From: Candidatus Anderseniibacteriota bacterium
Lineage (GTDB): Bacteria; Patescibacteriota; JAUYIX01
Reading direction: 5' to 3'
Assembly: GCA_046350855.1 (NCBI GenBank)
Contig: JAXLZM010000002.1
Location: 142,103 to 206,102, forward strand
DNA length: 64,000 bases
Numbering within the stretch: the stretch's first letter is position 1; every line of letters begins with the position of its first letter. Shown in pieces: positions 36,957-54,170 of the stretch. The position numbers and the translations under genes are program-made. The notes beneath the pieces are model-generated. The model was not told the DNA's origin. It saw only the letters and a list, made by a program, of their open reading frames with translations, and searched no databases.

Positions 36957-37304
36957 ATGAAAATTCGTACGATCTATTTCAAGGTCAAGAATGTCAAAAA
37001 AGCCGCCGCATTTTGGGAGGGATTCCTTGGAGTCAAACCACATAAGACCTTTGATGAATGGTATGAGTTCATGACCGACAACATTAGACTGGGTTTATAC
37101 AAGAACACTGGTGACAAGTTTGCTGGCAGTAATTGCATTCCCGTTTTTGAGTTTAGCGATGCGGAGGTTGGTCAGTACGTTGAACGCGCAAAGGAGCTTG
37201 GAGCAAAGGTTCTGTTTGATTCTCTCAATGACCCAGATGTTTTAAGTGTTGGATTTAGAGATCCATTTGGACACGAGTTTGAAGTCAGTAAATTTCACAA
37301 CTAA
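36957..37304 (+). CDS. VOC (glyoxalase/bleomycin-resistance) family protein
   Basis: Size and beta-alpha-beta pattern; weak motif support. Confidence 0.45.
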   Translation: MKIRTIYFKVKNVKKAAAFWEGFLGVKPHKTFDEWYEFMTDNIRLGLYKNTGDKFAGSNCIPVFEFSDAEVGQYVERAKELGAKVLFDSLNDPDVLSVGFRDPFGHEFEVSKFHN

Positions 37305-37312
37305 TTGAGCCA

Positions 37313-37852: not shown

Positions 37853-37870
37853 CTTTACAAATAAGAAAAA

Positions 37871-37894
37871 GCACGTTGCCAGGGCGCAACGTGC
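37871..37894. other. perfect 9-bp hairpin GCACGTTGC-CAGGGC-GCAACGTGC flanked by A-runs
   Basis: Read directly; lies at the start of a 456-bp ORF-free region. Confidence 0.3.
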
Positions 37895-38308
37895 AAAAGG
37901 AGAGTGGACAAGGCCCCATTGTACTTAGACGTATTACTTCCCTGAACACACGTCGTCGTCTCGCAAAGCCTCAAAGAGAGTTATAAATAGAGTTCTCTCT
38001 CGACGGTCTCCTGAAGCACAATCTTTTGGCTCAAAGAGTGTGACCGTCTGGCAAACTGCTACAGCGTGCTCTAACACCTCGAGTGGGGACCGTGTCCCAA
38101 AGAAGCAGTTCGTAGTCCTCGCAGGGATGCGAGGGAGCCAGCAGCATGAAGCGAGTGAAGGTGCAGGTGTGGGCCGTAGCTAGGAGCTGCTACTTGCCCT
38201 ACTTGGTCACTGGAAACCGCTCATCGTTCACCTCCTGGTTTCAGTGGCGGGAAAATAGCATACGATTAGCTGATGGTCAAGACCCTCGGTTTTAGGTAGA
38301 GTTTATTC

Positions 38309-38992
38309 ATGAAAACCGCTCTAATCACCGGTACCGGCAAAGGAATAGGTCACGCTACCGCAGATCTTTTTCTCACCAAGGGCTGGCGCGTTATCGGTAC
38401 ATACACGCATGACAAGGGAACCATCGTCTCACCAAACTACAGCGAGATCAAATTAGATCTGCACTCCAAAAAGAGCGTCGCGGATGCGGCGAAAAGTATC
38501 GCCAAACTCGCTCCACAGATCGACGTGCTTATTAACAACGCCGGAATCGCGCCTGACGCTCTCAAGACCAAGGCCGATATGGAAAAAATCCGTGTGACTT
38601 TTGAGGTCAACGTCTTTGGCTTGATCGATCTGACGGAAAAAGTTCTACCGCTGCTCGCGACCGGCAGTCATGTCATCAATGTTAGTTCTCGGTATGGATC
38701 GTTCAACTTTAAGATCGTTGACTCGTATGCCACGGCCTATCGCATGTCAAAGGCCGCGCTCAATATGTACACACGCATGCTGGCTTTTCGGCTTAAAGAT
38801 AAAAAGATGCGTGTATCGGCGATTCATCCAGGCTGGGTAAAAACGGATATGGGTAACATGGGAGTCGGACCACAGGATAAAGCGCGTCCTGATCGGGAAC
38901 CAAAAGATGCCGCTGCGGACATCTACAGGCTTGCCACGAGTGATGTGGAGTCGGGCCAGTTTTGGTTTAAGGGCAGACAGTTTGAGTGGTAA
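38309..38992 (+). CDS. short-chain dehydrogenase/reductase (SDR)
   Basis: ALITGTGKGIGHA Rossmann motif, YxxxK catalytic pair (YRMSK). Confidence 0.8.
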   Translation: MKTALITGTGKGIGHATADLFLTKGWRVIGTYTHDKGTIVSPNYSEIKLDLHSKKSVADAAKSIAKLAPQIDVLINNAGIAPDALKTKADMEKIRVTFEVNVFGLIDLTEKVLPLLATGSHVINVSSRYGSFNFKIVDSYATAYRMSKAALNMYTRMLAFRLKDKKMRVSAIHPGWVKTDMGNMGVGPQDKARPDREPKDAAADIYRLATSDVESGQFWFKGRQFEW

Positions 38993-39001
38993 CAGAATCT
39001 T

Positions 39002-39499
39002 ATGTCCAATAGTTCATCCAACGAAATTAAAGTAGCGGTCGGTGCCTTTATTGCTAACGATAAGGGCCAGGTACTACTGGGCCTGAGAAAAAACGTGGCC
39101 GGAGCGGGCGAATGGCAGGTGCCAGGCGGTCATCTAGAATATGGTGAGACGCTCATCGACGGGGCCCGTAGAGAGGTCAAAGAAGAAACGGGGCTCACAG
39201 TTGGCGAGATGCGACTTGTTTCGGTTATCGACGAGAGCCCAGAGGTTATGGGGCGAACCACTCACTACGTTACCGTAGACTTTTCGGCCCACTACCTCGG
39301 TGGTACCCCCGTTGTTATGGAGCCGCACAAGTGTGGCGGGTGGCAGTGGTTCTCCCTGGATGCGCTGCCCGAGAAACTGTCGCAAGGGATGCGGATGGCG
39401 GTTGAGAACTATAAAAATAAGACCGTTTACAAGGCGAGGGATTTCACGATAAAAACTAAGCACCATGTTACAAAGCACGACTATGCTCAAAGCATTTAG
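39002..39499 (+). CDS. NUDIX hydrolase
   Basis: Nudix box GGHLEYGETLIDGARREVKEETGL. Confidence 0.8.
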   Translation: MSNSSSNEIKVAVGAFIANDKGQVLLGLRKNVAGAGEWQVPGGHLEYGETLIDGARREVKEETGLTVGEMRLVSVIDESPEVMGRTTHYVTVDFSAHYLGGTPVVMEPHKCGGWQWFSLDALPEKLSQGMRMAVENYKNKTVYKARDFTIKTKHHVTKHDYAQSI

Positions 39500-39785
39500 A
39501 AACGCCCTGCTTGCCACGGCCTATATCTCCGGAGTCGCCATGCTTATGTTCTTTGGGCAAAAGCATATCCCTGGCCCGGATACGTTTTTGATGCCGGTCG
39601 CAATGCTGAGCTTGCTGACGTTGTCAGCAGCCGTCATGGGGTATCTCTTTGTGTACCAACCAGCCACGCTTTTTCTCGCCAACAAAAAGGCAGAAGGTGT
39701 AAAGCTGTTCTTCCAGACCGTTGGGATTTTTGCAGGGATTACGACCATCGTTTTTGTGGCAGTCTTTTTGGGGATTGGTCGCTAG
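39465..39785 (+). CDS. small membrane protein (3 TM)
   Basis: ORF with hydrophobic helices; overlaps the NUDIX 3' end. Confidence 0.35.
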   Translation: MLQSTTMLKAFRNALLATAYISGVAMLMFFGQKHIPGPDTFLMPVAMLSLLTLSAAVMGYLFVYQPATLFLANKKAEGVKLFFQTVGIFAGITTIVFVAVFLGIGR

Positions 39786-39830
39786 CCGGTGTACCATTGC
39801 GGCATGTCTAAGTTGTAACCGTTCACCCAC

Positions 39831-40175
39831 ATGAAGCGAGCCGGAATCATACTCATCATCGTTGGCGTCTTTGCAACGCTCTGGGGTGCTTACGCGCTTA
39901 TGATGGCGTTTAATGGCTACACGATGGATACGTCGTACCTGGGTCGGGGGACCGGGCTGGGCTATAGCGTCAGTGCGACGACGGATGCCAATGGCAAATT
40001 GGTTCCGATAACACCGGAACAAGAAGCTGCTGCAGCCGCTGAGTATGATGTGGGCTATCAGGCGAACATCAGGCAGCACAAGCTTCGCGGATCGCTAATG
40101 CTCGGCGCTGGTGTCGTCGCCTTAGCGGTGGGTATTGGTCTCACCGCAGCCAGTAAGCGCAAGTCCAAAAAATAG
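39831..40175 (+). CDS. small membrane protein (2 TM)
   Basis: ORF, ATG start. Confidence 0.4.
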   Translation: MKRAGIILIIVGVFATLWGAYALMMAFNGYTMDTSYLGRGTGLGYSVSATTDANGKLVPITPEQEAAAAAEYDVGYQANIRQHKLRGSLMLGAGVVALAVGIGLTAASKRKSKK

Positions 40176-40752
40176 ATTGAAAAAAGTATTGCTCGGTTTA
40201 GAAAGAGGTTCAGTCAAGTTAGTGCCCCACGATCCACGCTGGGTAAGACTTTTTCAAAAGCAAAAGAAAATACTGAAAGACACATTTGGCGATACGATAC
40301 TTGCGATCGAACACGTCGGCAGCACGGCGATTCCCGGCATGCCCGCAAAGCCCATTATCGATATCGATGTGGGTGTTCGCTCAATGAGGGACATTGTGGC
40401 TATGCGTAAAAAGTTTAAAGCCCTAGGCTATCAGCACCGTCCCTTTGTCCCCGGTGTTACCAAGGGCGAACTCAAAAAACAAGAACTCTTTGTGGTTGGG
40501 TCGGGCGCAAAACGCACGCACCATATCCACATTGCGATATTTGGGAGTAACTATTGGAACAATAATATTCTGTTTCGTGATTACCTACGGGCGCATCCTG
40601 CTCGAGCTAAAAAATATGCTGCGCTCAAATGTCAACTTGTAAAAAAGTTTGCTAACGATCGCAACCGCTACACCAAAGCTAAAGAAAAGTTTATTTCTGC
40701 AACAATACAGTTGGCGCAGAAAAGGCATCCCAAACGGGTTGAGACGCCTTAA
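40135..40752 (+). CDS. GrpB-family nucleotidyltransferase-fold protein (TTG start)
   Basis: VGSTAIPGMPAKPIIDIDVGV motif typical of GrpB/UPF0157. Confidence 0.65.
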   Translation: MVSPQPVSASPKNRLKKVLLGLERGSVKLVPHDPRWVRLFQKQKKILKDTFGDTILAIEHVGSTAIPGMPAKPIIDIDVGVRSMRDIVAMRKKFKALGYQHRPFVPGVTKGELKKQELFVVGSGAKRTHHIHIAIFGSNYWNNNILFRDYLRAHPARAKKYAALKCQLVKKFANDRNRYTKAKEKFISATIQLAQKRHPKRVETP

Positions 40753-40904
40753 AAAAGTTAATCTCGAAATTCAGACAGCAGCGGTGTACTTATCCACAGA
40801 CGATAGTCAAAAAGTGGTCATTTTTTAATCTTTTCTTAAGGTTTAACCCGTACAGTCGTGTTGTTCCATTGGAACAGTGCACGTTGACAGCTAGGAGCAT
40901 CAAG

Positions 40905-41444
40905 ATGAAGCAACTCATCGCGGGCAGCCATGCGGAATGCAAATCCCGCATCTGGTTGCTCGACCTGGATCCGATCATGGTCAAGCTCATGGACAAGAAG
41001 GAAGGAAAGGGCTGGACGCTCGAGCAGGCACTGCTTGCGGTCGGGGAGTACCGGCGGTTTCTCTTCCTGACCGTCACGCGTGAGGAGACCATCGTTCCGA
41101 CCGAGTTCGTGGACGCGGTCTGGCACGCTCACATCCTCGACACCATGAAGTACGCCAAGGACTGCGAGGAGATCTTCGGGTTCTTCTTGCACCACTTCCC
41201 GTACTTCGGGATGCGCGGTGAGGAAGACCAGGCCACCCTGCAGTCGACCTTCCGTGCCAGCGCCGGCATCTACGAGGCGGCCTTCGGGCAGCCGTATTAC
41301 GTCGGGCTGAACGGCGCCAACTGCGGCACGTGCGGTCCCAACGCCTGTGGTTCGTGCGCTGGTTCTGGACTGATCCCTCCACAGAAGGACGTCTTTCGGG
41401 ACGTGGTGCGGTCGGACCATCGTCCCGTACTGGCGATTGCCTGA
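40905..41444 (+). CDS. glycine-rich-domain protein (GRDP/DUF1399-like); high-GC, probably horizontally acquired (ORF opens at TTG 40869)
   Basis: VDAVWHAHILDT motif; GC3-rich codon usage unlike neighbours; AGGAG 7 nt before the ATG at 40905. Confidence 0.6.
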   Translation: MKQLIAGSHAECKSRIWLLDLDPIMVKLMDKKEGKGWTLEQALLAVGEYRRFLFLTVTREETIVPTEFVDAVWHAHILDTMKYAKDCEEIFGFFLHHFPYFGMRGEEDQATLQSTFRASAGIYEAAFGQPYYVGLNGANCGTCGPNACGSCAGSGLIPPQKDVFRDVVRSDHRPVLAIA

Positions 41445-41456
41445 AGCAACTCTATT

Positions 41457-41489
41457 GGGGCTTGGATAACATCCGAGCCCCGCTTTTTT
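41457..41489 (+). terminator. intrinsic terminator
   Basis: GGGGCTTGGAT-AAC-ATCCGAGCCCC then GCTTTTTTG. Confidence 0.6.
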
Positions 41490-41523
41490 GAAAAATAGTT
41501 CTTGAATAGTAGTATCAACTTAT

Positions 41524-42129
41524 ATGGGTCAGCCTGTTATTCGAATTTCATACAATCGGCTTCTGGATCCGTTTTTCCGATCCTTTTTTGAATTACAGCA
41601 TGCCGGAACACCAAAAAACTCAACATATACTTCGCCAGAAGTAGTTTTGAAGAAAGTTTCTGAGTTTATCAATGCATGGAAAAAAAGAGAGTCGGTCTTG
41701 GAGTTTATGCAAGAAACGCTCTCGCTAGAGTTTTATCAAAATGCGATTGATGTGCACGTGGTTGGTTTTATTAAGCACGCGATTAGTTCGCCAATGATCA
41801 TTAGCAGTACGAAGTCTGTTGACGCATTTGTTGATTCTCTTACCCACGAACTTTTACATCGGCTTGTGAGTGATAACACAAAGAAAATTCCCGCTGGCAA
41901 GATTCTGCTTAATCTGTATCCAAAGGAATCGCGACTGTGCCGAAATCATATTGTTGTTCATGCGGTACTCAAAAAAATCTATCTCGAGTTTTTTAAAGAG
42001 GCTGAGCGGTTAACCGCTATTCAAGTGCGCGATAAAAAAGCATCTGCATATATGCGTGCCTGGGAGTTAGTCGATACGTTAGGGGCAGATTCTATAATTG
42101 CGCAATTCAAAAAAGGATATCAAAAATAA
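41524..42129 (+). CDS. hypothetical protein with HExxH motif (LTHELLHRL)
   Basis: ORF at the left edge of the low-GC island. Confidence 0.45.
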   Translation: MGQPVIRISYNRLLDPFFRSFFELQHAGTPKNSTYTSPEVVLKKVSEFINAWKKRESVLEFMQETLSLEFYQNAIDVHVVGFIKHAISSPMIISSTKSVDAFVDSLTHELLHRLVSDNTKKIPAGKILLNLYPKESRLCRNHIVVHAVLKKIYLEFFKEAERLTAIQVRDKKASAYMRAWELVDTLGADSIIAQFKKGYQK

Positions 42130-42138
42130 ATGGCGGCA

Positions 42139-43173
42139 TTAGAGCTTTTTGAGCTCGTATTTTGTTCTGCCAGTGTTAATTACTAAGATCTTCTTGCTGG
42201 CTGGCACCTTGTTTTTGAGTTGCAACAAAAGTGCTAAGCCTGCGATACCTGATGGTTCTGCCTCCACGTTTTGTGACTCAGCAAGCGCCATAGCTTGATC
42301 CAAGTATTTTTCCTGAATTTGCTGCACGCCGGATTCCGGTCCGCATAATCCCGCAAAGCGATAAAACTTAATCCACTGTTCATCAAAATGAACAAACGGC
42401 AAATGTGGTGAGTAGAGTTTTTGTGCTTTACTCTCTGGCGAGGTGGTAGTCGCTCCAATAAAGTTGCACTTGCGGAGCTTGTGCACGTTGCCCCTAAAAC
42501 GCGGATCGTGGTGCTCGGTTGTAACCTCGCGCTTGTTGATGTTGAGAATGTTCTCAAACAAGTTGCCCGTGCCGAACGGAATGAAACAGTAGTCTGGAGA
42601 TGCGTTGATGACCTCGTAGCTGAGCCAGTCGTAAAAGCGGGTGGTTGGCGCGAGGGCTTCATTGGAGGTAATGTCGAAGCCGGTTGGATTATTGGTTAAT
42701 GCCAAAATTTCGCGCCACTGGAGGGATTTTCTCGAGAGATCAGTGTCGTAGAGTTCACAGCCGATTTCTTTGAGGCGGCTTTGGATTTTATCGTCGAGGT
42801 GAGAATCGACTAGTACTTTGAGGTGGGGCAGGAGGTATTTGTTGAGCTGCATTTGTATTGCAAAGGCTGCGGTTCCGGATGAAATAATCGACATATGGGG
42901 GAGGGCACCGCGGAGTTCACCTCGTTTTTTGGATTGTAGAAACTCGCGGTAGGTCACAACGATCTCCCAGGCCATGCGATCCTTGTGCGTGCCAGTTGGG
43001 TTTTTGCTCTCATCTTTGAGCCAGACATTTTTGAATCCGGGCACCGTGATGCGGTAGGTCGGTGTGGCGGGAAACTTGGGATCGTCAGCAGGGAACTCTG
43101 GCCTCTGCGGGTCGTTTTCTGAAGCTACAACGATCGAGCGTAGGATTTTGTTTTCTTTGGTCGTAAGGGTCAC
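42139..43173 (-). CDS. PLP-dependent enzyme, fold type II (threonine synthase/cysteine synthase-like)
   Basis: Lys-containing NPTGTHKDR motif and Gly-rich SSGTAAFA phosphate loop. Confidence 0.65.
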   Translation of the reverse strand: MTLTTKENKILRSIVVASENDPQRPEFPADDPKFPATPTYRITVPGFKNVWLKDESKNPTGTHKDRMAWEIVVTYREFLQSKKRGELRGALPHMSIISSGTAAFAIQMQLNKYLLPHLKVLVDSHLDDKIQSRLKEIGCELYDTDLSRKSLQWREILALTNNPTGFDITSNEALAPTTRFYDWLSYEVINASPDYCFIPFGTGNLFENILNINKREVTTEHHDPRFRGNVHKLRKCNFIGATTTSPESKAQKLYSPHLPFVHFDEQWIKFYRFAGLCGPESGVQQIQEKYLDQAMALAESQNVEAEPSGIAGLALLLQLKNKVPASKKILVINTGRTKYELKKL

Positions 43174-43463
43174 TAGCGCAGGATACTTGGCAAAATATCT
43201 TTTGTCTCGTCATTGATAAATGGCTGAACTGCTTCTCGGCATACTTCAAGTGCGCCACGACCAAAGAGCTGTTCATAGTGGAGCACGAGTTCTTTGATAA
43301 CCCGTTTTGGATCCCCAACAACGGCGACATACTTTTTTATGGGATCAAGCTTGATTCCATAAACTAGCGTTGCCTGCTCCCAGGCAAGTGGTCCGACGAT
43401 CTTTGCTTGTGCCTCAATGATAGCGCTGACAATCGCAGAGCTGATTTTTAAGGGCGGAGTCAT
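43173..43463 (-). CDS. small soluble protein, family A, copy 1 (96 aa)
   Basis: Paralog of 44351..44629 (shared ...I(V/I)GP(L/I)AWE(Q/E)AT... and C-terminal LPSIL(R/K)); translationally coupled to the upstream membrane protein. Confidence 0.5.
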   Translation of the reverse strand: MTPPLKISSAIVSAIIEAQAKIVGPLAWEQATLVYGIKLDPIKKYVAVVGDPKRVIKELVLHYEQLFGRGALEVCREAVQPFINDETKDILPSILR

Positions 43464-43472
43464 TGCAGAATC

Positions 43473-44354
43473 TTATTTTTCTATTGACCACGATTTTTCT
43501 TTTGTGGGTGGTACCCTCAGCCTTTTCGGATTGAATTGTGCCAAGCCAAGCCCCAAGATGAAGAAAGTGACCGTGTAAAGAAAATCTGAAATGCTTCCAT
43601 TAAAGTACGATCCTTTGGTCGTCATATAGACGAACAAAAAGTCTGCGAAATACATCATAAAAAAACCAAGCAACAAAATGGGCATTGCCTTTTTAAAGAT
43701 TCCTCCAATGTATTTTTTCGTGAGCTTATACGTTAGAATCGTAAGACTCAATAGGATCGCGTCTCCAATTGGGTAATAGAAATCAAAGAAAAGCTTAGTT
43801 TTGCCGCCTGCCACATCAATGGTTCCATTACGAGCAACTATAAAAAGTAAATAATAAGAAACCAAAATCACAATTGCCGGTAATAGTGTTACTAACAACT
43901 TTCCGCCAGTTTTCTTTACAGCATATTTGGCTCCTGTACTGCGTAGTAGCAGAACAATACCAATGGTCCAGAATAGGGGACATGAGCCGAAAAAGATGTC
44001 CGCCATCGAAGGATAGGGAACCTCGACTCCCTTAAAAAAAAGATAGTAGTTCCACATAATCATGCCCCCGCCGAAGGCCGCTGTACCTATAGAGATAAAT
44101 ATTAGAGAACGACCTATAGAGCTTGACCACCAACCCCATCCACGAGCACTTGCTAGGCCCAAGAAGCCTCCAATAAGGGGAAGGAGTGCGACACCTGTTA
44201 AGTACGGCTTTATTCCGAACTCAAAGAGTTTTCCTTGAAGAACTCGAGCGTTTCCCGCGCCTACAATGTAATAAAGCCAAAAAAGAGTAGTCAGGCCGAA
44301 AATTAGACAAAGAATTATTATTCCTATACTTACGTTTTTTTGATTGTTTTTCAT
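43473..44354 (-). CDS. 8-TM membrane protein, family B, copy 1 (293 aa)
   Basis: Paralog of 44638..45468; shared motifs FG..., PYPS(M/W)(A/G)D(I/V), (F/L)(Y/G)YPIGDA. Confidence 0.55.
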   Translation of the reverse strand: MKNNQKNVSIGIIILCLIFGLTTLFWLYYIVGAGNARVLQGKLFEFGIKPYLTGVALLPLIGGFLGLASARGWGWWSSSIGRSLIFISIGTAAFGGGMIMWNYYLFFKGVEVPYPSMADIFFGSCPLFWTIGIVLLLRSTGAKYAVKKTGGKLLVTLLPAIVILVSYYLLFIVARNGTIDVAGGKTKLFFDFYYPIGDAILLSLTILTYKLTKKYIGGIFKKAMPILLLGFFMMYFADFLFVYMTTKGSYFNGSISDFLYTVTFFILGLGLAQFNPKRLRVPPTKEKSWSIEK

Positions 44355-44629
44355 TTTAGGATGCTTGGTAACAATTCTTTACTTTCTTCATCAATTAGCG
44401 ACTTAACTGCTGCTCGACTAACTTGTCGTGCAGTTAATCCAAACAAAACTTCAAAATGTCGCACAAGTTCCTTTAGAACAACGGGCGCGACCCCAACAAC
44501 TTGAACTTTTTTACTTTGAAGATCAACCAAAAGCCCTGCCGTTTTTGTTGCCTCTTCCCAAGCAATCGGCCCAATAATCTTTGCATGCTCCTTGATGATA
44601 CTTTCTGCCATTTGATCGGCTAAGTCCAT
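44351..44629 (-). CDS. small soluble protein, family A, copy 2 (92 aa)
   Basis: See copy 1. Confidence 0.5.
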   Translation of the reverse strand: MDLADQMAESIIKEHAKIIGPIAWEEATKTAGLLVDLQSKKVQVVGVAPVVLKELVRHFEVLFGLTARQVSRAAVKSLIDEESKELLPSILK

Positions 44630-44637
44630 CGGAGTAT

Positions 44638-45468
44638 TTATTTGACCTCTTTAAAACGCTGCAATGCTACGCCTAATTGTAACAACGCAAGTGTCATTAC
44701 GAAGTAAGCAAAGAAACAAAGGAAATCGACGCTTCCAGCAACATAGTAGGTCCCGCGACCCGCTTGGTATAAAAATGCAAAATCAGTGCAGTATTGCATG
44801 ATAAGAGCAAAGATTAGAAAGAGTATCGGAGCTCGTATGATGCCTCCCAAGAAGTTGCGTGAGAGCGCAAAAACCAGCAAGGCTGCAGAAACATAAATTG
44901 CATCGCCAATCGGGTACCCCAAATCAAGAAAAGTCCGCAATGGTTGCGACCAATCAGGCGTATAACCTCTTAAGAAAAATATAGTAGTTATGCTGAGCAT
45001 AATTAGCGGTATAACGACAGCTAGAGTTTTGCCTTTAAAGAATCGCAATGATAATTCGTTGCGCATTGCTTTTGCTAATGCGATTGCCCCCAACATGTAT
45101 AAAATAACCGTTCCAAAGTAACCAACGTCGCCCCAGGAAGGATATGGAGTCGTAATGTTTTTTACGTAAACGTAATATTCGTACACGGCCTGCCCGATTA
45201 ATTGAAACCCAAATCCAATTGTTAAGAAGAGAAGAGCCCGGCCAAGTTGGCTTTTCCTGCCGCCCCATTTTTTTGCGATCATCAAGCCACAAACTAAGCC
45301 TGGCCCGACAATTAATGGGTAGAGCAGAGTCAAAAATAAAATTTCTACCCCATTCTCGACTCCACGAATATGAATCGTAACCCACCAAATTGCGATTGCT
45401 ACAAAATAGATCGTACAAATTCTTGCGACATAACTTCGTTTGAGGGTCTCGTACAAGCTTTTTATCAT
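44638..45468 (-). CDS. 8-TM membrane protein, family B, copy 2 (276 aa)
   Basis: See copy 1. Confidence 0.55.
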   Translation of the reverse strand: MIKSLYETLKRSYVARICTIYFVAIAIWWVTIHIRGVENGVEILFLTLLYPLIVGPGLVCGLMIAKKWGGRKSQLGRALLFLTIGFGFQLIGQAVYEYYVYVKNITTPYPSWGDVGYFGTVILYMLGAIALAKAMRNELSLRFFKGKTLAVVIPLIMLSITTIFFLRGYTPDWSQPLRTFLDLGYPIGDAIYVSAALLVFALSRNFLGGIIRAPILFLIFALIMQYCTDFAFLYQAGRGTYYVAGSVDFLCFFAYFVMTLALLQLGVALQRFKEVK

Positions 45469-45491
45469 TGACTTATCTTACTTAATGAACC

Positions 45492-46817
45492 TTAAGAAAA
45501 TGTAGAATTCGAGGCCTCTGGTAAAACGGCTCGTAGTACGGTCCTATACTCATCTGCCTCCGGTATCGAGAGTTGGCCTCCGTGCGCACTCAAGATCCAA
45601 TGTGCGATATCGAGCTCAAGTCCTGTGATTCCTGCTTGTCGATCATCGCGCGTAGGTCGAGATTGTTTAATATCCTCTAACAAAACACGAAGCTGCCGTC
45701 CTTGACGTTGCGGGAGTGCGCTAAAAATAAGATCAATAGAATAGCTTGGTTTGGGCTGGTCATGGTGAAGCTCAACTAGCAAATCTTTTGGTGCCAAACG
45801 CAACGCACGCAATAGCAAGAGCTGCAAAAGCTTATATAGTAGTCCGGCATCGCCACGAATGAGGCTCGGCGTCCCTTCTATGAGAGTTGGACGCCAAATC
45901 AGTCGGCGGTTTTGGGTTTGTGCAAAATCCAGTGCGTACTCTACTGCATCGTCGACCAACAGCTCTAAATCAATCGGCTCAGCTTGAACCTGTATCTTGC
46001 CCGCCTCTGCGCGTGATAAATCCAGAATATGATCGATAAATTTCGTCATCCAAGAGACCTCGGCCTGCACTACCTTAAACTCAGCCGAGTCAGTAAGTCG
46101 CTCTTGCAAAGCAAAGGACATTACAACAACAGGGTTTTTGAGATCATGCGCCAACTGATCGAATTGCAAGGCATTATCGTGATCACGCTGATTAAGACGG
46201 TCATTGAGTCGCTGTAATGATTTTGTACTTTGCTGCAGCCTCGCTTTTATCTGTTCTAGCCGCAGCTGCTCATAGCGTCGCGCTTGAGCCAAGTCAAAGA
46301 GTACTGAGAGTTGATCGGCAAAACGTTGCAATGTTCTTCTGTCCCACTCTGTCCACGGGTCACCATTGTGTTTTGATCCAAAACAAAGAACGGCCTTGCG
46401 GTCATTGCCAATGGCTATTTGTAGTTTGGCATTGAGATTAACTGTACCCAGTTCTTGTAGTTCTAACGGAGCTTGAGTTGTAGTGCCAAGTGTTTTAATA
46501 GTCAGGGGAATAAGCTGCGCAAGAGGGGTAACAAGGATAAGCCGCTGTATCAATCCTTCTAGGAGCTCTTGGTAATCAAAAGAGCCCTTATAAATATGCT
46601 CTCGTGCCAATCGTTCTCCAGTTGGCACAAGTTGTGCCATGACAATTGCAATCAGGCTAATCACGAAAACAATACCTATAAGACGAGCGGTTGGGTATTG
46701 AAACAGTAACTTGTTAGTGCTGTTAAGTAGGATATAACTCGCCGGCCCAAGCAGTACAAGTATGCTGAAGTATAAAGCAATATAACGGCTCACGACGACA
46801 AGTAGATAGCGCTTCAT
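45492..46817 (-). CDS. sensor histidine kinase (membrane anchored), canonical H-box
   Basis: N-terminal TM helices; H-box LAHDLKNPV; HATPase_c motifs; 4-bp overlap with the upstream kinase. Confidence 0.8.
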   Translation of the reverse strand: MKRYLLVVVSRYIALYFSILVLLGPASYILLNSTNKLLFQYPTARLIGIVFVISLIAIVMAQLVPTGERLAREHIYKGSFDYQELLEGLIQRLILVTPLAQLIPLTIKTLGTTTQAPLELQELGTVNLNAKLQIAIGNDRKAVLCFGSKHNGDPWTEWDRRTLQRFADQLSVLFDLAQARRYEQLRLEQIKARLQQSTKSLQRLNDRLNQRDHDNALQFDQLAHDLKNPVVVMSFALQERLTDSAEFKVVQAEVSWMTKFIDHILDLSRAEAGKIQVQAEPIDLELLVDDAVEYALDFAQTQNRRLIWRPTLIEGTPSLIRGDAGLLYKLLQLLLLRALRLAPKDLLVELHHDQPKPSYSIDLIFSALPQRQGRQLRVLLEDIKQSRPTRDDRQAGITGLELDIAHWILSAHGGQLSIPEADEYRTVLRAVLPEASNSTFS

Positions 46818-48265
46818 ACAGAAATTCTTGTACTAACGTGTAATTCAACTAAAAACTGATTGCCTTGTGGTTCAACTCCGTCTTCCATTATTACAATCTG
46901 GGCATTGCCGCCATAGGCCTTTGCTAGCTTACGAACAATAGAAAGGCCAAGGCCGGTGCCTTTTTGGGTTACGCTACTGGCAGTACGGTAAAACGGTTCA
47001 AAAATCAGATCTTGCTCGTCTGGCGAAATTGGCTGGTTTTGATCCGTTACTTTAACCAAAAGACGTCCTGGAGAAACCGTAATACTACAGTCTATTTGAG
47101 TGTTCTTGATCGAATACTTGATAGCGTTTTCTATGAGATTATCGAGAATTTCTTCAAGATGGAGCGGCTTGATCGAAACCTGAGAGCACTTAGGTGAAGC
47201 TTTTACCGTAAGCGAAACGCTTTTTCGTGAGGCCAACTTTGCAAAACGAGTGTGTAACTTCTCAAGAAACATATCTATGTCGATCCATTCAACAAGGGGA
47301 GCGTCAACGATCTCAGTGCCACCAGATTGCTCGAACTCCTTGCTTAAGCTGACTAATTTTGCAACGGATTCCGTGATGGATTGTTGTGCTTCTTTGGGCA
47401 ACTCAATGGCACCACTTTGCACACCCGAAAGAACCACCGTTAACGGCGTGCGTAGTTCTCGGGCAACCGTTTTGAAAAATGCGGTACGATCTTGTAATTT
47501 TTTGTACAAGTTGGCGTTAGCTTGATGCAGCTGTTCTGTTTGTTGTTCAGTCACTAGCTGAACTTCAGCGACATGGTTTTTTCTTGTTCTTTGTAGTTGC
47601 TCTACCTCGGTTTTTGCAGCATACAGTGCGATATCTTTTTGGATACTCTCCACTTCTAGTGGAGTGAAAGCGATATTAAACTTCTTATGTCCCAATACGA
47701 AATAACCGTCTAAAGCAGGCAGGGCAAGAGAGACACGTTGCGGCCCCGTACCCGTTATGGTTCTAAAATGCTGGCCTAGTATGTAGTCCTTACTAATATC
47801 TATCGGATTCGCAAAACGCGTAGATGCAGCTTGTTCTTGTAGGCGGGCAGTTATTTCGTTGAACGCAATACTGCCTTCTGTTAGCGGTGCTTTGATTTTT
47901 CTATTAACCCAGACAACCCCAGTCAGCTGGTACTTTTCTACCAGTGATTGCAAAAAGCTTTTACGATTTGGCTGAATCTCGTGTTGTTTGTAGTCGCGTG
48001 TTATTTGACGACCCCAAAACCTATTCAGCAGTTGCTGGAGCACAATGACGATAAATAAGCCGGCGATAATTTGACTAAATACAGTTGTGCTTGAGTTTTG
48101 TTCAGCCTGATTACTGAGCCCTACCTTAGGCCAAAAAATAATAGTGATCAGGACGACACTTGTGATCGTCGCGAGTACCACATGCCTTGAGAACGTAACA
48201 GCGGTATTAATCGTCCCGTAACGTAGAACAACAAGACAAAGCGAATACAACAGCAAGAGACTCAC
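46814..48265 (-). CDS. sensor histidine kinase-like protein with Arg replacing the phospho-acceptor His (ARELRTPL); N-terminus possibly longer or frameshifted
   Basis: HisKA-like box VARELRTPLTVV, where the consensus is hELRTPL; intact N, G1, G2 boxes (LIENAIKYS, GTGLGLSIV). Confidence 0.7.
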   Translation of the reverse strand: MSLLLLYSLCLVVLRYGTINTAVTFSRHVVLATITSVVLITIIFWPKVGLSNQAEQNSSTTVFSQIIAGLFIVIVLQQLLNRFWGRQITRDYKQHEIQPNRKSFLQSLVEKYQLTGVVWVNRKIKAPLTEGSIAFNEITARLQEQAASTRFANPIDISKDYILGQHFRTITGTGPQRVSLALPALDGYFVLGHKKFNIAFTPLEVESIQKDIALYAAKTEVEQLQRTRKNHVAEVQLVTEQQTEQLHQANANLYKKLQDRTAFFKTVARELRTPLTVVLSGVQSGAIELPKEAQQSITESVAKLVSLSKEFEQSGGTEIVDAPLVEWIDIDMFLEKLHTRFAKLASRKSVSLTVKASPKCSQVSIKPLHLEEILDNLIENAIKYSIKNTQIDCSITVSPGRLLVKVTDQNQPISPDEQDLIFEPFYRTASSVTQKGTGLGLSIVRKLAKAYGGNAQIVIMEDGVEPQGNQFLVELHVSTRISV

Positions 48266-49139
48266 AGAAAGATAGGAATAGTAGTAGGCGTAAAAATCTG
48301 CGATACCAAATGCTGAAATTACTGAAAAAGCGACTGCGTTTACTACGATCGCCAGAAAAAGCGATGCCGATAATTTTCATTGGTCGCCTATCGTTCAGCG
48401 ACATCTTTTTATGTTTGATAAAGAGCGCTATGCTGCAAGTGCCCAAAAGGATGGATAGGCTACTTGTGAAGCACAAAGTAAGGCAACTCGGTTCTGGTGA
48501 CAATATTTTGTATCGAGTAGTCATACTGCAAAACCAGGCCTTGCGGCAGTAAGTTCAGAATAATGGTGCCAGCATTAGTAATGGTGGAAAGTCCGACAAT
48601 AAAAAACGCGATACAGTGCGACTCGAATACGGAGGAAACTTGCCAATAAAAACAAATAAAAAATACAAAAACTCCAATAGGGGACGACGTGCTTAGCGAC
48701 CAAGCCAAAGATATAATCCGGTGGCTGGTGGTAGCCTGATCGTCGGCGGAATGTTAAGAGCGATCCACAGGACGAACGCCAAACAAAAAAGCCTGCCCAT
48801 TGGGAGGGGTAGCGATTTTTGGATTAGACTTTAAATAGCGCAATCGTGAGTAAAGCCGCAACTATCAAAAACGGCGAAAGCGATTATTGCTTGTGTAACG
48901 CTAATACAGTTCAAGCAAGATCCTGAAAGGCTAGACGATCATGGCTTTATCGTCAAGGACTGCAATGAAAGAAAAAATTCATCCTGAAACCGTTCAAAAA
49001 TAGAGAGCGGATGCTGGGTACGGTAATAACCATCTTTATTTTTGAATTTGCGCCGAGCAGGACCAAACTGACAAAAACTTAAGAAAAGGTGAAATCGCTA
49101 TATTTTTGTGTAAAATAGCTCCACGACAAAATCCTGAAT

Positions 49140-50064
49140 CTTGTACGAACTGTTAAGCCTACCCAAGTGCCCTTATCTGAGCTCCCACGACAAAAGCTTG
49201 AACTAACCGATCGACCAGGCATAGAGAGACTGCGAAAAGAGTTTCCGGCGTACTCAGATTTCAATTTTACAAGCCTCTGGTGCTGGATACTAAGAACGAT
49301 CTTACTTTCTCGGTTGTCGAAGGAAATCTTGCAGTAAAGTTTAATGATTATCTAACTGGAGATCCGTTTATTCGCATTCTTAGGTAAAAATCAAGCAGAG
49401 GCCGCAGAAAGGCTACTTCCGAACGGCAGCAGATAGAGGAAGCCATAAGGTTGAATTGCGTTTAGCGCCTGCTGAGTCTGTACAGTCGTTGGATGCTAGT
49501 AAGTATTATATCGCACCAGATGAAAACAACTTTGACTATCTCTTATCAACTGAAGAACTATCCTCATTTAAAGGAAATAAGTGGCGTGCGAAGAGTAACT
49601 TTGTTAACCGCTTCAAAAAAATGTATCGATCAAAAGTCATAGAGTTGGATCTGGGAGACCCATCGACTGAAAAAAAAATTAAAGGTTTATTCGGACTTTG
49701 GGCACAAAAAAAGGCACCCAACTCTAAAGATACAAAAAATGAAGGTATCGCAATTTCAAGGTTGTTGCAGTTCTCAAAACACTTTAAAACTGAATCAATA
49801 GGTTTAGAAATAGAAGGTGAACTGGTTGGTTTTTCAATAAATGAAATAACCTCCCCATCATCAGCTTTATTACATTTTGAAAAGGCTAATCTTAATTTCG
49901 TAGGCGTTTATGCTTACCTCATGCAACAAACCGCAGTCCATTTGCGCAATAAAGGATGTACGATATTAAACTATGAGCAAGATCTTGGGCTGCAAGGCTT
50001 AAAGAAAGCAAAGGCCTCTTATTTCCCCGTATCTTTTTTAAAAAAATACGTTGTTAGCAAATGA
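49140..50064 (+). pseudogene. DUF2156 (MprF C-terminal lysyltransferase-like domain) gene remnant, multiple frame disruptions
   Basis: Family assignment is from pattern memory. N-terminal fragment ...RLRKEFPAYSDFNFTSLWCW... at ~49140-49300 in one frame, two further fragments in other frames, then a 202-aa ORF 49456..50064. Confidence 0.45.
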
Positions 50065-50140
50065 CGCTAGTAAGGAATGCATACAATAATGTAAAATATT
50101 TGCACGAGCATGTGGCACATATTTAAGAGACTCGTTTCTC

Positions 50141-50968
50141 GTGATTGGGCGGCAAAACAGCGTTGCTTATTTTTTAGCGCTGTTTGCATGGTGGTTTCTG
50201 TTACAAGTTTTGTATCAAGGACAAGATGCTGAAAAAAACTTAATTTGGGCGGCCACATATCAGCTCGTTGCTTTGCTTGGTGCTATTTTGGGGAATTTTT
50301 GTTTCGCGGTCTTGGGGTGGAACTAAAAGTGTTTTTGGTAGAGCAATTGGTGCGTTTGCGCTGGGTCTACTTTTCCAAACTATTGGACAAAGCGTCTTTA
50401 GTTTTTACAATTCCATTTTAAAAGTCGAAATTCCCTTATCCTCACTAGCAGATGTCGGTTTTTTTGGAAGCATTCCGTTGCATGTATATGGCGCAATTTC
50501 TTTAGGTAGAGCTTCGGGCGCCGTCGTTTCTCTGCGAAGATTCCGCAACCAACTTTCAGCCTTTTATTACCTGCGGCAGCGCTTTTGATTTCTTATTTAT
50601 TTTTCTTGAGGTTATGAGTTTGATTGGGAGTTCACCATTGCGGGTTTTTCTAGATTTTGCATATCCATTGGGACAAGCAACTTTATGTTTCTTTCGCATT
50701 GCTTGTTTTTATCATTACAAAAAATTCTCGGCGGCATTATGCGTCCCAGGGTACTTTTATTTTGATTGCCCTTTGCAGTACAGTACTTGGCCGATTATAC
50801 TTTCTTTTTCATATTTTCAGATTGATGCAACGAAGTGCAGGACTCTATTTATTTAGCTGCTTATTTGTTTATGTCGTTGGCATTGTTGCAAATAAATCGC
50901 GTTGGCATCCAAAGAGCTGTGATCAGTTTTTGCGAAGTTACAAGACCAGATTGCTGCTAAGATCATAA
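50141..50968 (+). pseudogene. decayed third copy of family B membrane protein
   Basis: Four overlapping ORF fragments that align segment by segment with 44638..45468 (GQSVFSFYN / GQAVYEYY; ADVGFFGS / GDVGYFGT; DFAYPLGQA / DLGYPIGDA). Confidence 0.5.
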
Positions 50969-51211
50969 AAGACCAAGAACTTATAATTGGTCCTTTCGCG
51001 TGGTCCGAAGCAAAGAAGGTGAAGGGCCGTGAGGGTCAACCCAAACACTAATCAAGCAGAAATCTTAGGAGCACCAAAAGTCGTTTTAGAGTCCTTGGTC
51101 AAAAGATACGCGCGCTTATTTGGTGATGCTTCTATCGAAGTTTGCAAGGATGCAGCAAGACCATTTATTGGAAAGTTTCCAAAGGCTGAGTTGCCAGCAA
51201 GTCTTCAATAG
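50923..51211 (+). pseudogene. decayed third copy of family A small protein (start codon lost, internal frameshift/stop at ~51049)
   Basis: ...QDQIAAKIIKDQELIIGPFAWSEAKKV... then stop; C-terminal part in another frame ...LVKRYARLFGDASIEVCKDAARPFIGKFPKAELPASLQ. Confidence 0.45.
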
Positions 51212-51229
51212 TTTTTAGGCTTCTAACTC

Positions 51230-52615
51230 ATGAAGGACCGCAAGAACTCAAAAAGCAGTTCTGATTCCGTCAGTACAGGATCACAGCAGATAAACCGTGA
51301 GCTCTATAAGCGGAACGCCGAATTGGCAGTACGCAACAAAACCCTGGCTCTCCTACGTAAGCTGGATGAGATTTCTTTACGGGCAATTGGGATTCAACCT
51401 ACGGCTCAGGAGATTGCTGGAGCGATCTCCGTCGAGTTTGGGTACGAGATTGTCTCAGTAGCAATCGCCATGCCTGAGAAAAAGGAGTTGCGCTGGCTCG
51501 CGCTCGCGTCTTCGGTACCGACCTACTCTGCTCTTTTTGGACAAGTTATTCCCGGTGAGTCAGATTTTTTGGCAAAAGCGCCTGCTAAAAAACTCGAGGG
51601 TCAGCTCCGCAAGGACACGTTTGTTAAGGGTATCGACAGTTTATTTCCCGATGACCTCAAGCAAAAAATTGGGGCTATCAAGGGTGACGCGATCTCCAGT
51701 ACGCTAGTTTACCCACTTGTTTTTGAGGAAAAGCCGATTGGCATTATTACGTTCAGCGCCATTCGAAATCTGCACGAACTCACTAAATACGAGCACGAAT
51801 CGATCGAGGGCATTGTCAGCCTAACCTCGCTCGCTCTCTACAAGGCAAAGCTTTTTGAGGACTTACAAACGACAACCGAGCAGTTACGCGAGGCCAACCA
51901 CCGACTTAAAGAGCTCATGGAAATCAAGACTCAGTTTTTGCATATTGCATCTCACCAATTGCGCACACCGCTCACGAGTCTCCGCGGCTTCTTAGACATG
52001 CAGGCGAGCGGGGATTTTGACAAGCTCACGCCGGATCGACGTAAAGAGCTCCAAAAAACGATGGCCATGGCTGGCGACCAACTCAATGCGCTGGTCAATG
52101 ATCTTCTTAATGCCATGGAACTTGAAGGTGGTGCGCCAAACATCAAGCCTATCGCAACTGACGTCTGGAAAGTTATCGAGGAAGCCGTCGTCACACTCCA
52201 GATCGCTTTCGACAAAAAGGGCCTCAAACTTGTTGCAAACAAGCCCGCCATTAAATTGCCGCAGATTCTTGCAGATGCCTCGTACCTCCGTCAGGTCTTC
52301 CTCAACTCTCTCGACAACGCGATGAAGTATACGCCCAAAGGCTCAGTCACGATTAGCGCCAAAGTAGCTGGCAAAAACATCGCTATTGACGTCACCGATA
52401 CCGGTATTGGTATCGACCCGCGCGACAAGCCCAAGCTCTTTGGTAAGTTCGTCCGCGGTGGCAATTCGGAGACGCAGCACACCACAGGCAGTGGTCTAGG
52501 ACTCTTTATCATGAAGCAAATCGTCCAGCAGCATCACGGTACGATTGAACTTAGGAGCGATGGCGTAGGCAAGGGGACGACCGTGCACATCGAGCTTCCA
52601 ATCCTTAAAGTCTAA
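51230..52615 (+). CDS. cytoplasmic sensor histidine kinase (GAF-HisKA-HATPase)
   Basis: H-box ASHQLRTPLTSL, N/G boxes, N-terminal GAF-like region. Confidence 0.8.
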   Translation: MKDRKNSKSSSDSVSTGSQQINRELYKRNAELAVRNKTLALLRKLDEISLRAIGIQPTAQEIAGAISVEFGYEIVSVAIAMPEKKELRWLALASSVPTYSALFGQVIPGESDFLAKAPAKKLEGQLRKDTFVKGIDSLFPDDLKQKIGAIKGDAISSTLVYPLVFEEKPIGIITFSAIRNLHELTKYEHESIEGIVSLTSLALYKAKLFEDLQTTTEQLREANHRLKELMEIKTQFLHIASHQLRTPLTSLRGFLDMQASGDFDKLTPDRRKELQKTMAMAGDQLNALVNDLLNAMELEGGAPNIKPIATDVWKVIEEAVVTLQIAFDKKGLKLVANKPAIKLPQILADASYLRQVFLNSLDNAMKYTPKGSVTISAKVAGKNIAIDVTDTGIGIDPRDKPKLFGKFVRGGNSETQHTTGSGLGLFIMKQIVQQHHGTIELRSDGVGKGTTVHIELPILKV

Positions 52616-52618
52616 GCA

Positions 52619-52966
52619 ATGAAGGCCTGGGGTAAATCGATCGCAATCGACTTATATCAATGCGATCACAAAAAAATGATCGATCCGGAAGGGCTTAAGA
52701 CCTTTATCGCTGAACTTATTAAGTCGGTAGACATGGTTGCACATGGACCGTGTTACGTAGAGCGCTTTGGCGAAGGCAAACTCTTGGGGTACTCGGCTAT
52801 GCAATTTATTGAAACTTCTGCAATTACTGTCCATCTAGACGAAGTCGATAGCCGTGCCTTTATTGATCTCTTTAGCTGCAAACAATTTGATGCAAAAAAA
52901 CCAACCGAACTTGCCATCAAATATTTTGGCGCAAAGCAACACAAGTTGACTGAGCTCAACCGCTAG
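52619..52966 (+). CDS. S-adenosylmethionine decarboxylase-like pyruvoyl enzyme (SpeH-type, small form)
   Basis: 115 aa; ...GYSAMQFIETSAITVHLDE... resembles the SpeH self-cleavage region (ES/TS). Confidence 0.55.
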   Translation: MKAWGKSIAIDLYQCDHKKMIDPEGLKTFIAELIKSVDMVAHGPCYVERFGEGKLLGYSAMQFIETSAITVHLDEVDSRAFIDLFSCKQFDAKKPTELAIKYFGAKQHKLTELNR

Positions 52967-52974
52967 CAGATAGT

Positions 52975-53895
52975 GTGGCCATGAATTGGCTGCTCCTCGC
53001 CGTTATCCCACCGCTGCTGTATGCGGTCGTAAACCACTTTGATAAGTATCTCGTGCAGAGATATTTCAAGGGAGCGAGTGTTGGTGCGGTACTTATTTTT
53101 TCGGCGCTCATCGGGATTTTTGTCGCGATTCCTATTGGCATTTTTGTTCCCGAAGTTTTTGACTTGCCTGCTCGGCACTCCGCTCTCATCGTCGCAAACG
53201 GATTTTTGTATCTGTTGGCCAGCCTCCCATACTTTTATGCCCTCTCGAAAGACGAAGCCTCCGTCGTTGTACCTGTTTTTCAGCTCGTGCCCTTCTTTAT
53301 TCTGCTTTTTGCTTTTATATTTTTGGGAGAGACCATTAGTCTAAACGGCCTTCTCGGTGGCGCAGTTGTTGTTTTGGGAGCGGTGTTGATTTCGTTAGAG
53401 CTATCCCACAAAAAAGCTAAGTTCAAACAGAGCGTTTTTTGGCTGATGGTGCTGTCATCCTCACTTTTTGCGCTTAACTTTGTGCTCTTCAAGAATTTAA
53501 ACATCGACAGCACTTTTTGGATCACAAACTTTTGGGAATATGTCGGTTTTGTACTTTTTGCTGCTTTTGCGCTGGTCTGTATCCCGCCATACCGAAGACA
53601 ATTCTTTTCTGTTTTCAAACAAAACAAAAAAACGGTACTCGCGCTTAACGGCATCAACGAAATAATCGCAGTTGCAGCCAAGGCTTCGTTTAACTTTGCG
53701 TCGCTTTTAGCCCCGGTTGCACTCGTTTCTTTTGTTGGCGGGCTTCAACCGCTATTCGTTTTTCTTATTGGAATAGCACTGACGCTGTTCTTCCCTAAAA
53801 TTAGTAAAGAAAACATCGACGCTCGGCATCTAATTCAAAAAATAGTCGCAATTTTGGTGATTTTGGTTGGCGTTTGGATGCTGAGTTCAGCCTAG
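52975..53895 (+). CDS. DMT-superfamily transporter (two EamA domains)
   Basis: 10 TM helices in two repeats. Confidence 0.75.
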   Translation: MAMNWLLLAVIPPLLYAVVNHFDKYLVQRYFKGASVGAVLIFSALIGIFVAIPIGIFVPEVFDLPARHSALIVANGFLYLLASLPYFYALSKDEASVVVPVFQLVPFFILLFAFIFLGETISLNGLLGGAVVVLGAVLISLELSHKKAKFKQSVFWLMVLSSSLFALNFVLFKNLNIDSTFWITNFWEYVGFVLFAAFALVCIPPYRRQFFSVFKQNKKTVLALNGINEIIAVAAKASFNFASLLAPVALVSFVGGLQPLFVFLIGIALTLFFPKISKENIDARHLIQKIVAILVILVGVWMLSSA

Positions 53896-54170
53896 GGAGA
53901 CTCTGCAAAAAGGGCCCTGGGAACCGTGTGGATTACTGCTACTTATACCCTAGCGCCCCAGCCCAAGACCTTGTAGAATAATCAGCAAAAGAGAGGACTT
54001 GCCGGCCAAGCAAAGGCCAACCAGCAGGTTCAACAGGGGAAACAAAAAGCGAACCAAAAGGACTTCCAAGACAGAGAGCTCTTGCGAGTTTGCGCTGTAA
54101 TGAGGCCGGATAAAGAGACCGGCCGCGAGGCAGCAGTTTACTTACTACACTTCCCTCACTTCCCATCCAC

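Follow-up and report, generated by a model that had tools for sequence, protein, structure and literature searches.

Two reciprocally degenerate histidine kinase paralogs in Patescibacteria: candidate halves of one class-I kinase

Why would a bacterium keep a histidine kinase that lacks the histidine on which it should be phosphorylated? This question is raised by two adjacent genes, here called HK1 and HK2, in a stretch of 64,000 nucleotides from a Candidatus Anderseniibacteriota bacterium (Patescibacteriota; contig JAXLZM010000002.1, positions 142,103 to 206,102). The whole stretch is referred to as the window, and coordinates without a locus label are positions in it. The original prediction for this locus described HK1 as a kinase with Arg in place of the phospho-acceptor His, HK2 as a normal kinase, and the two as a pseudo-kinase/kinase pair with trans-phosphorylation. 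The pairing stood up to closer analysis, but the roles did not. Judged by their motifs, neither HK1 nor HK2 is a complete kinase, and their defects are reciprocal and not one-sided. We suggest that HK1 and HK2 probably make up one class-I (HisKA-type) histidine kinase whose functions are split between them. The features of the pair in the window are as follows, with TM standing for transmembrane, DHp for the dimerisation and phospho-acceptor domain and CA for the catalytic domain.

46814..48265, minus strand: HK1 open reading frame (ORF), 483 aa, GTG start; residual TM helices, GAF-like linker, DHp domain without phospho-acceptor His, CA domain
47441..47467, minus strand: HK1 H box VARELRTPL; the phospho-acceptor position is Arg269, codon CGA at 47459..47461
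47111..47158, minus strand: HK1 N box LEEILDNLIENAIKYS, intact
47027..47044, minus strand: HK1 G1 box DQNQPI, degenerate in the window copy alone
46940..46960, minus strand: HK1 G2 box GTGLGLS, intact
46814..46817, minus strand: ATGA stop/start overlap of HK1 and HK2, 4 bp
45492..46817, minus strand: HK2 ORF, 441 aa; two TM helices, small GAF-like alpha/beta domain, DHp domain with His224, CA-like domain without ATP-binding motifs
46131..46154, minus strand: HK2 H box LAHDLKNP; His224 is CAT at 46146..46148 and fits the H[E/D]xx[N/T] kinase/phosphatase motif
45789..45851, minus strand: region equivalent to an N box in HK2, DAGLLYKLLQLLLLRALRLAP; Arg337 stands at the site of the Mg-ATP-binding Asn and Arg340 at that of the Lys
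45612..45632, minus strand: HK2 G2 remnant GITGLEL, near-invariant across the family

Both ORFs were found where they had been predicted, and their ATGA overlap suggests that HK1 and HK2 are translationally coupled. The replacement of His by Arg in the H box of HK1 was likewise correct. In Pfam searches HK1 scored 81.7 bits for HATPase_c, whereas HisKA reached 20.3 bits and stayed under its cutoff of 26.9 bits. No conserved substitute His was found in the DHp domain when 12 HK1 sequences were aligned. An 'NH' motif located about 38 residues upstream was considered and rejected, because it is present in 9 of the 12 aligned sequences and lacking in the short forms of the protein. The N, G1 and G2 boxes of HK1 had all been described as intact. 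This is true of the N and G2 boxes, as well as of the F box, but not of G1, which reads DQNQPI in the window and DxGxG[I/V] in all 12 orthologs.

HK2 is degenerate in the opposite sense. It keeps the acceptor His, as predicted, and its HisKA score of 27.2 bits lies just over the threshold. The assumption that it is a normal kinase did not hold, since HATPase_c, with 15.3 bits, fell far short of its cutoff of 26.4 bits, the N-box region reads LLLRALRL with Arg in place of the Asn, and both the GxG of the G1 box and the F box are absent. A profile search against PDB sequences aligned HK2 end to end with DHp-CA cores, and placed 'LLvRavRl' opposite 'LIVNAIRYS' of HprS. The AlphaFold2 model of HK2 (mean confidence score, pLDDT, 83) consists of two TM helices, an alpha/beta domain (residues 81–146), a long helix carrying His224, a second DHp helix and a CA-like alpha/beta domain. 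The first match of this model in a Foldseek search against the PDB was the kinase region of RetS (E 1.7e-11), including entry 7n0e, in which this region is in complex with the DHp domain of GacS. GacS, DivL, HK853 and CpxA were matched at similar scores. The RetS match is not specific for HK2, because its E value barely differs from those of the ordinary kinases HK853 and CpxA (about 1e-10). Neither protein belongs to a named NCBIfam family above the curated cutoff; the best models were PhoR for HK1 (98.9 bits against a cutoff of 334) and BaeS for HK2 (44.5 bits against 603 for NF007837 and 44.7 bits against 500 for NF012163).

Related loci were gathered by searching for homologs, by looking up contigs through exact protein matches, and by scanning genome and metagenome collections for patterns. 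An exact-sequence lookup of the window HK1 returned no record, and its context was reached through homologs. In NCBI the window protein carries the annotation of a Candidatus Andersenbacteria metagenome-assembled genome. Thirteen independent loci with the pair were obtained: the window, L001 (a 781-kb JGI contig), L002/L003, L004, L005, L006 (identical to L007, Parcubacteria group), L008 (Ca. Andersenbacteria), L009 (labelled Saccharibacteria), L054, L099 (a 1.05-Mb JGI contig), L100/L101, L102/L103 and L104. HK1 is followed by HK2 without a spacer in all of them. The same 4-bp overlap as in the window is found in L001, L002, L004, L005, L009, L054 and L099, the two genes abut in L006, and they overlap by 1–17 bp in L008, L100, L102 and L104. 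This order and coupling hold across deep divergence (31–45% identity).

The reciprocal pattern, with an HK1 devoid of the His and an HK2 that keeps the His and has lost the ATP motifs, is present in 13/13 loci. The residues at the His position of HK1 are R, N, Q, A, R, E, A, Q, T, S, A, A and T, whereas the surrounding ELRTPL, the N box, DxGxG, LIFEPF and GTGLGL are conserved, with the exception of G1 in the window. The orthologs of HK1 carry all four ATP motifs (N, G1, F and G2). As no HK1 among the 13 loci has a His at this position, we judge the loss to be a family trait, beyond chance, and not a base-call error in one genome. The His of HK2 is invariant, every member having the pattern LAH[D/E]x[K/R][N/D]P, while the N-box Asn, the G1 GxG and the F box are missing in all members and HATPase_c is called by Pfam in none. 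The pattern is also seen in three short-form loci (L100, L102 and L104), in which HK1 has 236–290 aa and HK2 234–251 aa, both without sensor regions. The family is very rare, because an HK2 profile, run exhaustively with HMMER against 1.84 billion representatives, gave only 12 proteins at E <= 1e-30. One of these is a different, multidomain protein of 2017 aa. A description of such a pair was not found in the literature on pseudokinases, His-less kinases, split kinases and the Candidate Phyla Radiation.

Synonymous sites are saturated even between the closest pairs (synonymous divergence, pS, about 0.75), and selection is for this reason given as the contrast of pS with nonsynonymous divergence (pN), not as dN/dS ratios. 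The value of pN is 0.13–0.45 in every domain, and neither the DHp domain of HK1, which has no His, nor the dead CA-like domain of HK2 is an exception. All four domains are thus under purifying selection. Together with the conserved and coupled gene order, the selection on the catalytic motifs of HK1 and on the His of HK2 supports the pair as originally proposed. What changes is the assignment of roles, as HK1 would give the catalytic domain only and HK2 the acceptor only.

The following mechanism is consistent with these observations. HK1, ancestrally composed of a sensor with seven TM helices (7TM), a GAF-like linker, a DHp and a CA domain, would supply an ATP-binding catalytic domain without an acceptor His of its own. 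HK2, composed of two TM helices, a GAF-like, a DHp and a CA-like domain, would supply the His within its HDxxN motif and be unable to bind Mg-ATP; a role as acceptor only is suggested by its degenerate ATP site. The two proteins would be made together by way of the overlapping stop and start codons, and would probably associate as a heteromer in which DHp helices of both form a four-helix bundle. The catalytic domain of HK1 is maintained, because its motifs are conserved although self-phosphorylation is impossible. Since its co-translated neighbour has a His and cannot bind ATP, HK1 most likely phosphorylates His224 of HK2 in trans, which would give each complex a single phosphorylation site. 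From there the phosphoryl group would move on to a partner, which we would place elsewhere in the genome, because no receiver domain is encoded nearby.

The lack of a receiver domain in the window had been predicted from its ORFs. We searched for such domains with a custom hidden Markov model (HMM) built from CheY, Spo0F, OmpR, PhoB, NarL and 63 receiver domains of hybrid kinases. The window gave no hit in any of its six frames (best E about 1), and neither did 99 kb from nine related loci or another six loci, L099–L104 (best E 0.3). As a control, the same HMM detected receiver domains in 56/88 loci with ordinary kinase relatives. The kinases themselves are crowded in these Patescibacteria loci, with five in 21 kb of L002 and four in 17 kb of L099, many of them with a HisKA_7TM domain. 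The window has one further kinase, HK3, which lies directly after a broken gene module described below and has no receiver partner in the window. The pair is also present in L100, L102 and L104, where there is no other kinase nearby.

51230..52615, plus strand: HK3, a soluble, GAF-containing, fully canonical kinase (IASHQLRTPL, NAMKYT, DTGIGI, GSGLGL)
L002 1424-12298; L099 1-9389; L001 3899-13494: kinase-rich stretches; no receiver domain in the stretches retrieved

A bolder version of the split-kinase proposal does away with the receiver altogether. The pair would then be an obligate heteromeric class-I kinase with a single phosphorylation site that signals in Patescibacteria without a receiver-domain protein and through a non-canonical acceptor. 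Candidates for the output would be a membrane protein with 7–8 TM helices and its partner of about 92 aa, a pyridoxal phosphate (PLP) enzyme or, in the short-form loci, a TrmB-type regulator, all encoded beside the pair. We think it improbable that this version is correct.

Two features of the window copy of HK1 had been overlooked, namely the mutated G1 box and the loss of the 7TM sensor by frameshifts. The long orthologs of HK1 have 668–743 aa, with an N-terminal multi-TM domain of about 215–260 aa, and a remnant of this domain was recovered by a frameshift-aware alignment of four of them (P0002–P0005) to 48100..49000. Short ORFs at 48207..48708 had been taken for displaced N-terminal pieces of HK1. 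They are indeed such pieces, and the remnant extends beyond them, to about 48893. The frameshifts near 48368 and 48468 were placed identically by all four queries. The remnant is part of a decay patch of about 3 kb (48266..51208) with four broken genes, which has intact genes on both flanks and HK1 at its edge.

48266..48893, minus strand: eroded N-terminal 7TM (HisKA_7TM-like) domain of HK1, in three frames, with at least 5–6 frameshifts and an in-frame stop near 48824
49167..50064: broken LPG_synthase_C/DUF2156-type gene, split over frames; L104 has an intact homolog of 310 aa (37% identity)
50168..50915, plus strand: broken membrane-protein gene of the TM276 type (see below), third copy, six frameshifts and two stops
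50935..51208, plus strand: broken small-protein gene, third copy, one frameshift

The interval 48–50 kb has the lowest GC content in the window (41%). It lies within a longer stretch, 36000–54000, with 41–47% GC as against 53–58% on both sides. This stretch is not obviously a foreign island, because its genes are syntenic with the Patescibacteria loci L001 and L008.

In several other loci, free-standing 7TM proteins that are paralogous to the N-terminal domain of HK1 are encoded just upstream of HK1. No separate 7TM paralog was found upstream of HK1 within the window. In L099 and L009 the 7TM part of HK1 is itself a separate, intact ORF, which suggests that sensor and kinase underwent a natural fission there.

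L099 5040-6617; L009 3731-4534; L001 9093-9959; L004 102-893; L008 3035-3847: free-standing 7TM proteins or separated 7TM ORFs

Several points weigh against a split kinase. The sensor domain of this HK1 is destroyed by frameshifts and a stop, the ORF starts with GTG without an obvious Shine-Dalgarno sequence, and the G1 sequence DQNQPI should, judging from the ATP sites of GHKL proteins, impair ATP binding. Furthermore, we infer the HK1-HK2 complex from sequence, the window and the 15 related loci yielded neither a response regulator nor another acceptor, and canonical kinases nearby, such as HK3, could be the phosphodonors of HK2 instead. Because of the lost 7TM sensor and the mutated G1 box, the window copy of HK1 may be impaired, and the module may be weakened or heading to loss. 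In its strongest form this becomes the speculation that the locus is a decaying relic in this genome, HK1 being a pseudogene and HK2 non-functional or a stranded orphan, which would be compatible with function elsewhere in the family. The at least 5–6 frameshifts and the stop within 630 bp, the position of HK1 beside three more broken genes in the GC-poorest part of the window, the start context, and a G1 box mutated in no other family member all fit a relic. On the other hand, all disruptions of HK1 lie in its first ~630 bp and none in the next 1452 bp, which form the intact C-terminal ORF; by our arithmetic, if eight events were evenly spread over the 2082 bp, the chance that these 630 bp would take them all is about 7e-5. 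The window HK1 differs at 5 of 49 otherwise invariant sites, which is inside the family range of 0–6 and makes it no outlier, and we do not claim unusual degeneration or relaxed selection on its C-terminal part. L099, L009 and the minimal loci also have natural HK1 forms to which no 7TM domain is fused, and HK2 is intact. With the ORF intact, the invariant sites ordinarily diverged and 7TM-less forms natural elsewhere, the C-terminal part of HK1 may still be maintained and act as a truncated partner. We thus regard the relic as possible, although doubtful. Yet another concern, raised in the original prediction, was that Arg269 might result from a sequencing or assembly error in an ordinary kinase. 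The general error rate of metagenome-assembled genomes would allow this, and the adjacent frameshift patch could raise suspicion of local assembly problems. A change of the codon CGA to CAC or CAT takes two substitutions, and the other 12 orthologs also have no His, which together exclude a base-call error. The decayed genes moreover carry in-frame stops of the substitution type, which indel-type assembly errors would not produce; this argues for real decay. The chance of such an error can be neglected.

Two further explanations keep both proteins functional and assign them other tasks. HK2 could be a phosphotransferase of the Spo0B/ChpT type, or a dedicated phosphatase, shuttling phosphate between, or removing it from, receivers or canonical kinases elsewhere, with HK1 as an ATP-binding regulatory pseudo-kinase that modulates HK2 and does not phosphorylate it. 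At the level of sequence and model the layout of HK2, a DHp domain with His followed by a CA-like domain without ATP motifs, is exactly alike; HK2 also keeps the HDxxN phosphatase motif, and canonical kinases are clustered nearby. We consider this unlikely. The receivers it calls for are missing from the 64-kb window and the 15 related loci, the full conservation of the catalytic motifs of HK1 is left unexplained if HK1 never transfers phosphate, and the invariant coupling of the two genes points to HK1 as the donor. Alternatively, HK1 or HK2 or both could bind the DHp domains of canonical kinases, such as HK3 and the neighbouring 7TM kinases, and tune their output in inhibitory or modulatory heteromers without forming a joint kinase. 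RetS-GacS heterodimers of this kind are documented (PMC8498467), the best matches of the HK2 model were the RetS kinase region and its co-complex with GacS, and several canonical 7TM kinases occur in the same loci. This explanation deserves very little credence: the structural match is shared with ordinary kinases, three loci have the pair without another kinase to bind, and neither HK1 nor HK2 has a receiver domain, unlike the hybrid RetS. A purely inhibitory role would again leave the conserved motifs of HK1 without a reason. A split class-I kinase, with HK1 as catalyst and HK2 as acceptor, thus remains the interpretation that we favour.

The genes downstream of the pair in the window, with related or neighbouring genes from other places, are listed below.

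44638..45468, minus strand: TM276, membrane protein with 7–8 TM helices and no Pfam or NCBIfam match; 44% identity to its counterpart in L008 and 41% to that in L104; conserved companion of the pair
44351..44629, minus strand: small protein of 92 aa after TM276, no family match
43473..44354, minus strand: TM293, paralog of TM276 with 31% identity
43173..43463, minus strand: small protein of 96 aa, paralog of the 92-aa protein with 46% identity
42139..43173, minus strand: PLP-dependent enzyme (PALP fold, weakly threonine-synthase-like); homologs at L008 8403-9404 and L100 4070-5134
43173-45468 (minus strand) and 50168-51208 (plus strand) in the window; L008 7266-8377; L104 1156-2007: positions of the TM/small-protein module
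L100 5137-5895; L102 2022-2792; L104 2089-2889: TrmB-family regulators

A protein with 7–8 TM helices (276 or 293 aa) and a soluble protein of about 92–96 aa form a module that is present in three copies in the window, the third of which is broken. The module is located beside the kinase pair in L008, and L104 has the TM protein alone. A relationship of the TM276/TM293 family to the 7TM domain of HK1 was rejected (hhalign probability 1.8%, BLAST E > 0.1). The PALP-fold enzyme beside the pair is 68–69% identical across loci whose kinase pairs share about 35–45%, and other PLP enzymes neighbour the pair in L002 (an ornithine/diaminopimelate decarboxylase) and L099 (an aminotransferase). A divergently transcribed TrmB-family regulator is found in all three short-form loci, with 64–74% mutual identity, and is absent from the window. 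It is a possible output of the short-form pairs that would not require a receiver. Further downstream, genes for uncharacterised proteins of 201 and 194 aa (40836–42129) are 56% and 44% identical to genes that directly follow the pair in L001 (13664–15006), and the locus is therefore syntenic across genomes. One of the L001 counterparts is tagged PF27765, UCP032817-like. None of the TM276, 92-aa, 201-aa and 194-aa proteins belongs to a named NCBIfam family.

The asymmetry of half-dead kinases, and autophosphorylation in cis or in trans, have so far mostly been studied with engineered mutants, for example by complementation of EnvZ. If our interpretation is true, the pair would be a natural asymmetric kinase, in which one subunit only binds ATP and the other only becomes phosphorylated. 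It would give access to the evolution of heterodimer specificity in DHp domains, and show how two sensor inputs, the 7TM domain on HK1 and the 2TM/GAF-like part of HK2, merge in one catalytic event. It would also let one ask whether split class-I kinases respond like switches, as has been predicted for split kinases (PMC3591291). In L102 the natural pair is short (about 250 and 244 aa), which would make it convenient for biochemistry and crystallography. The pair also bears on signalling in Patescibacteria with their small genomes, as the loci examined are rich in kinases and without receiver domains.

How does the pair compare with known systems? Measured against a canonical class-I kinase, HK1 has no acceptor His, while HK2 has one (His224, within a HisKA domain of 27.2 bits). 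The complete set of N, G1, F and G2 boxes is lacking in HK2 and, with respect to G1, in the HK1 of the window. A canonical kinase also has a cognate response regulator, usually encoded next to it, and none was found in the window or the 15 related loci. Kinase folds without the acceptor His that act through protein-protein interaction include DivL of Caulobacter, the plant subfamily-2 ethylene receptors and RcsD. In DivL a conserved Tyr takes the place of the His. DivL was among both the sequence and the structure matches and resembles HK1 in its His-less kinase fold, but in HK1 the residue is unconstrained (Arg in the window, variable in the orthologs), the catalytic motifs are kept, and there is a dedicated partner with the His.

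Spo0B and ChpT combine a DHp-like helical hairpin carrying a His with a CA-like alpha/beta domain stripped of ATP motifs. HK2 shares this layout. Spo0B and ChpT are soluble, act between the receiver domains of a phosphorelay and lack a His-less kinase as a dedicated partner, whereas HK2 is membrane-anchored in its long form, resembles HisKA kinases over its whole length and is always paired with HK1. In Pseudomonas aeruginosa, the degenerate kinase-like protein RetS pairs with another kinase, GacS, via the DHp region (PMC8498467; PMC12189002). Of the structures searched, RetS matched the HK2 model best. It differs from HK2 in that it is a hybrid containing receiver domains, that its gene lies at a different locus, and that it acts as an inhibitor of GacS, whose kinase activity does not require it. 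Nor is it one half of a reciprocal, co-translated pair.

A division of one sensor kinase over two adjacent genes, as proposed here, also occurs in Mycobacterium tuberculosis, where a simple fission has given an ATPase-only and a His-domain-only protein with a response regulator next door. The M. tuberculosis HK1 reportedly, in the 2007 work of Shrivastava et al., binds ATP and phosphorylates the His of the M. tuberculosis HK2. In contrast, both proteins of the window keep a DHp and a CA-like domain, have degenerated reciprocally and have no adjacent regulator, and the order and coupling of their genes are conserved over the wide range of identities given above. The genes of the M. tuberculosis system (Rv0600c/Rv0601c/Rv0602c) are listed as HK1/HK2 with TcrA in one source (PMC9321153) and as two sensor kinases and one regulator in another (PMC3544749).

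The division of labour that we propose is also that of the class II chemotaxis kinases CheA3 and CheA4 of Rhodobacter sphaeroides. Neither autophosphorylates alone, and in a mixture the partner bearing the His becomes phosphorylated (PMC3591291). The same source describes that the domains of EnvZ can be split in vitro, and that HisKA-only proteins with an H[E/D]xx[N/T] motif are predicted to be split (bifunctional) kinases (PMC3591291). In both CheA3/CheA4 and HK1/HK2 the kinase activity and the phospho-acceptor are on separate polypeptides; for HK1/HK2, the separation of the ATP-binding function from the acceptor His on co-occurring polypeptides is seen, at the sequence level, in 13/13 loci. 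In CheA the His has a P1/HPt domain of its own, and the two partners are each just without the domains of the other. HK1 and HK2 are both full-length class-I DHp-CA proteins, each with a degenerate copy of the function it has lost, and there is no linked CheY-like acceptor. Their acceptor His is on the dimerisation helix, which would imply a heteromeric four-helix bundle. None of the systems compared joins two full-length class-I paralogs with reciprocal degeneration, a fixed overlapping gene order and no linked regulator, as HK1 and HK2 do.

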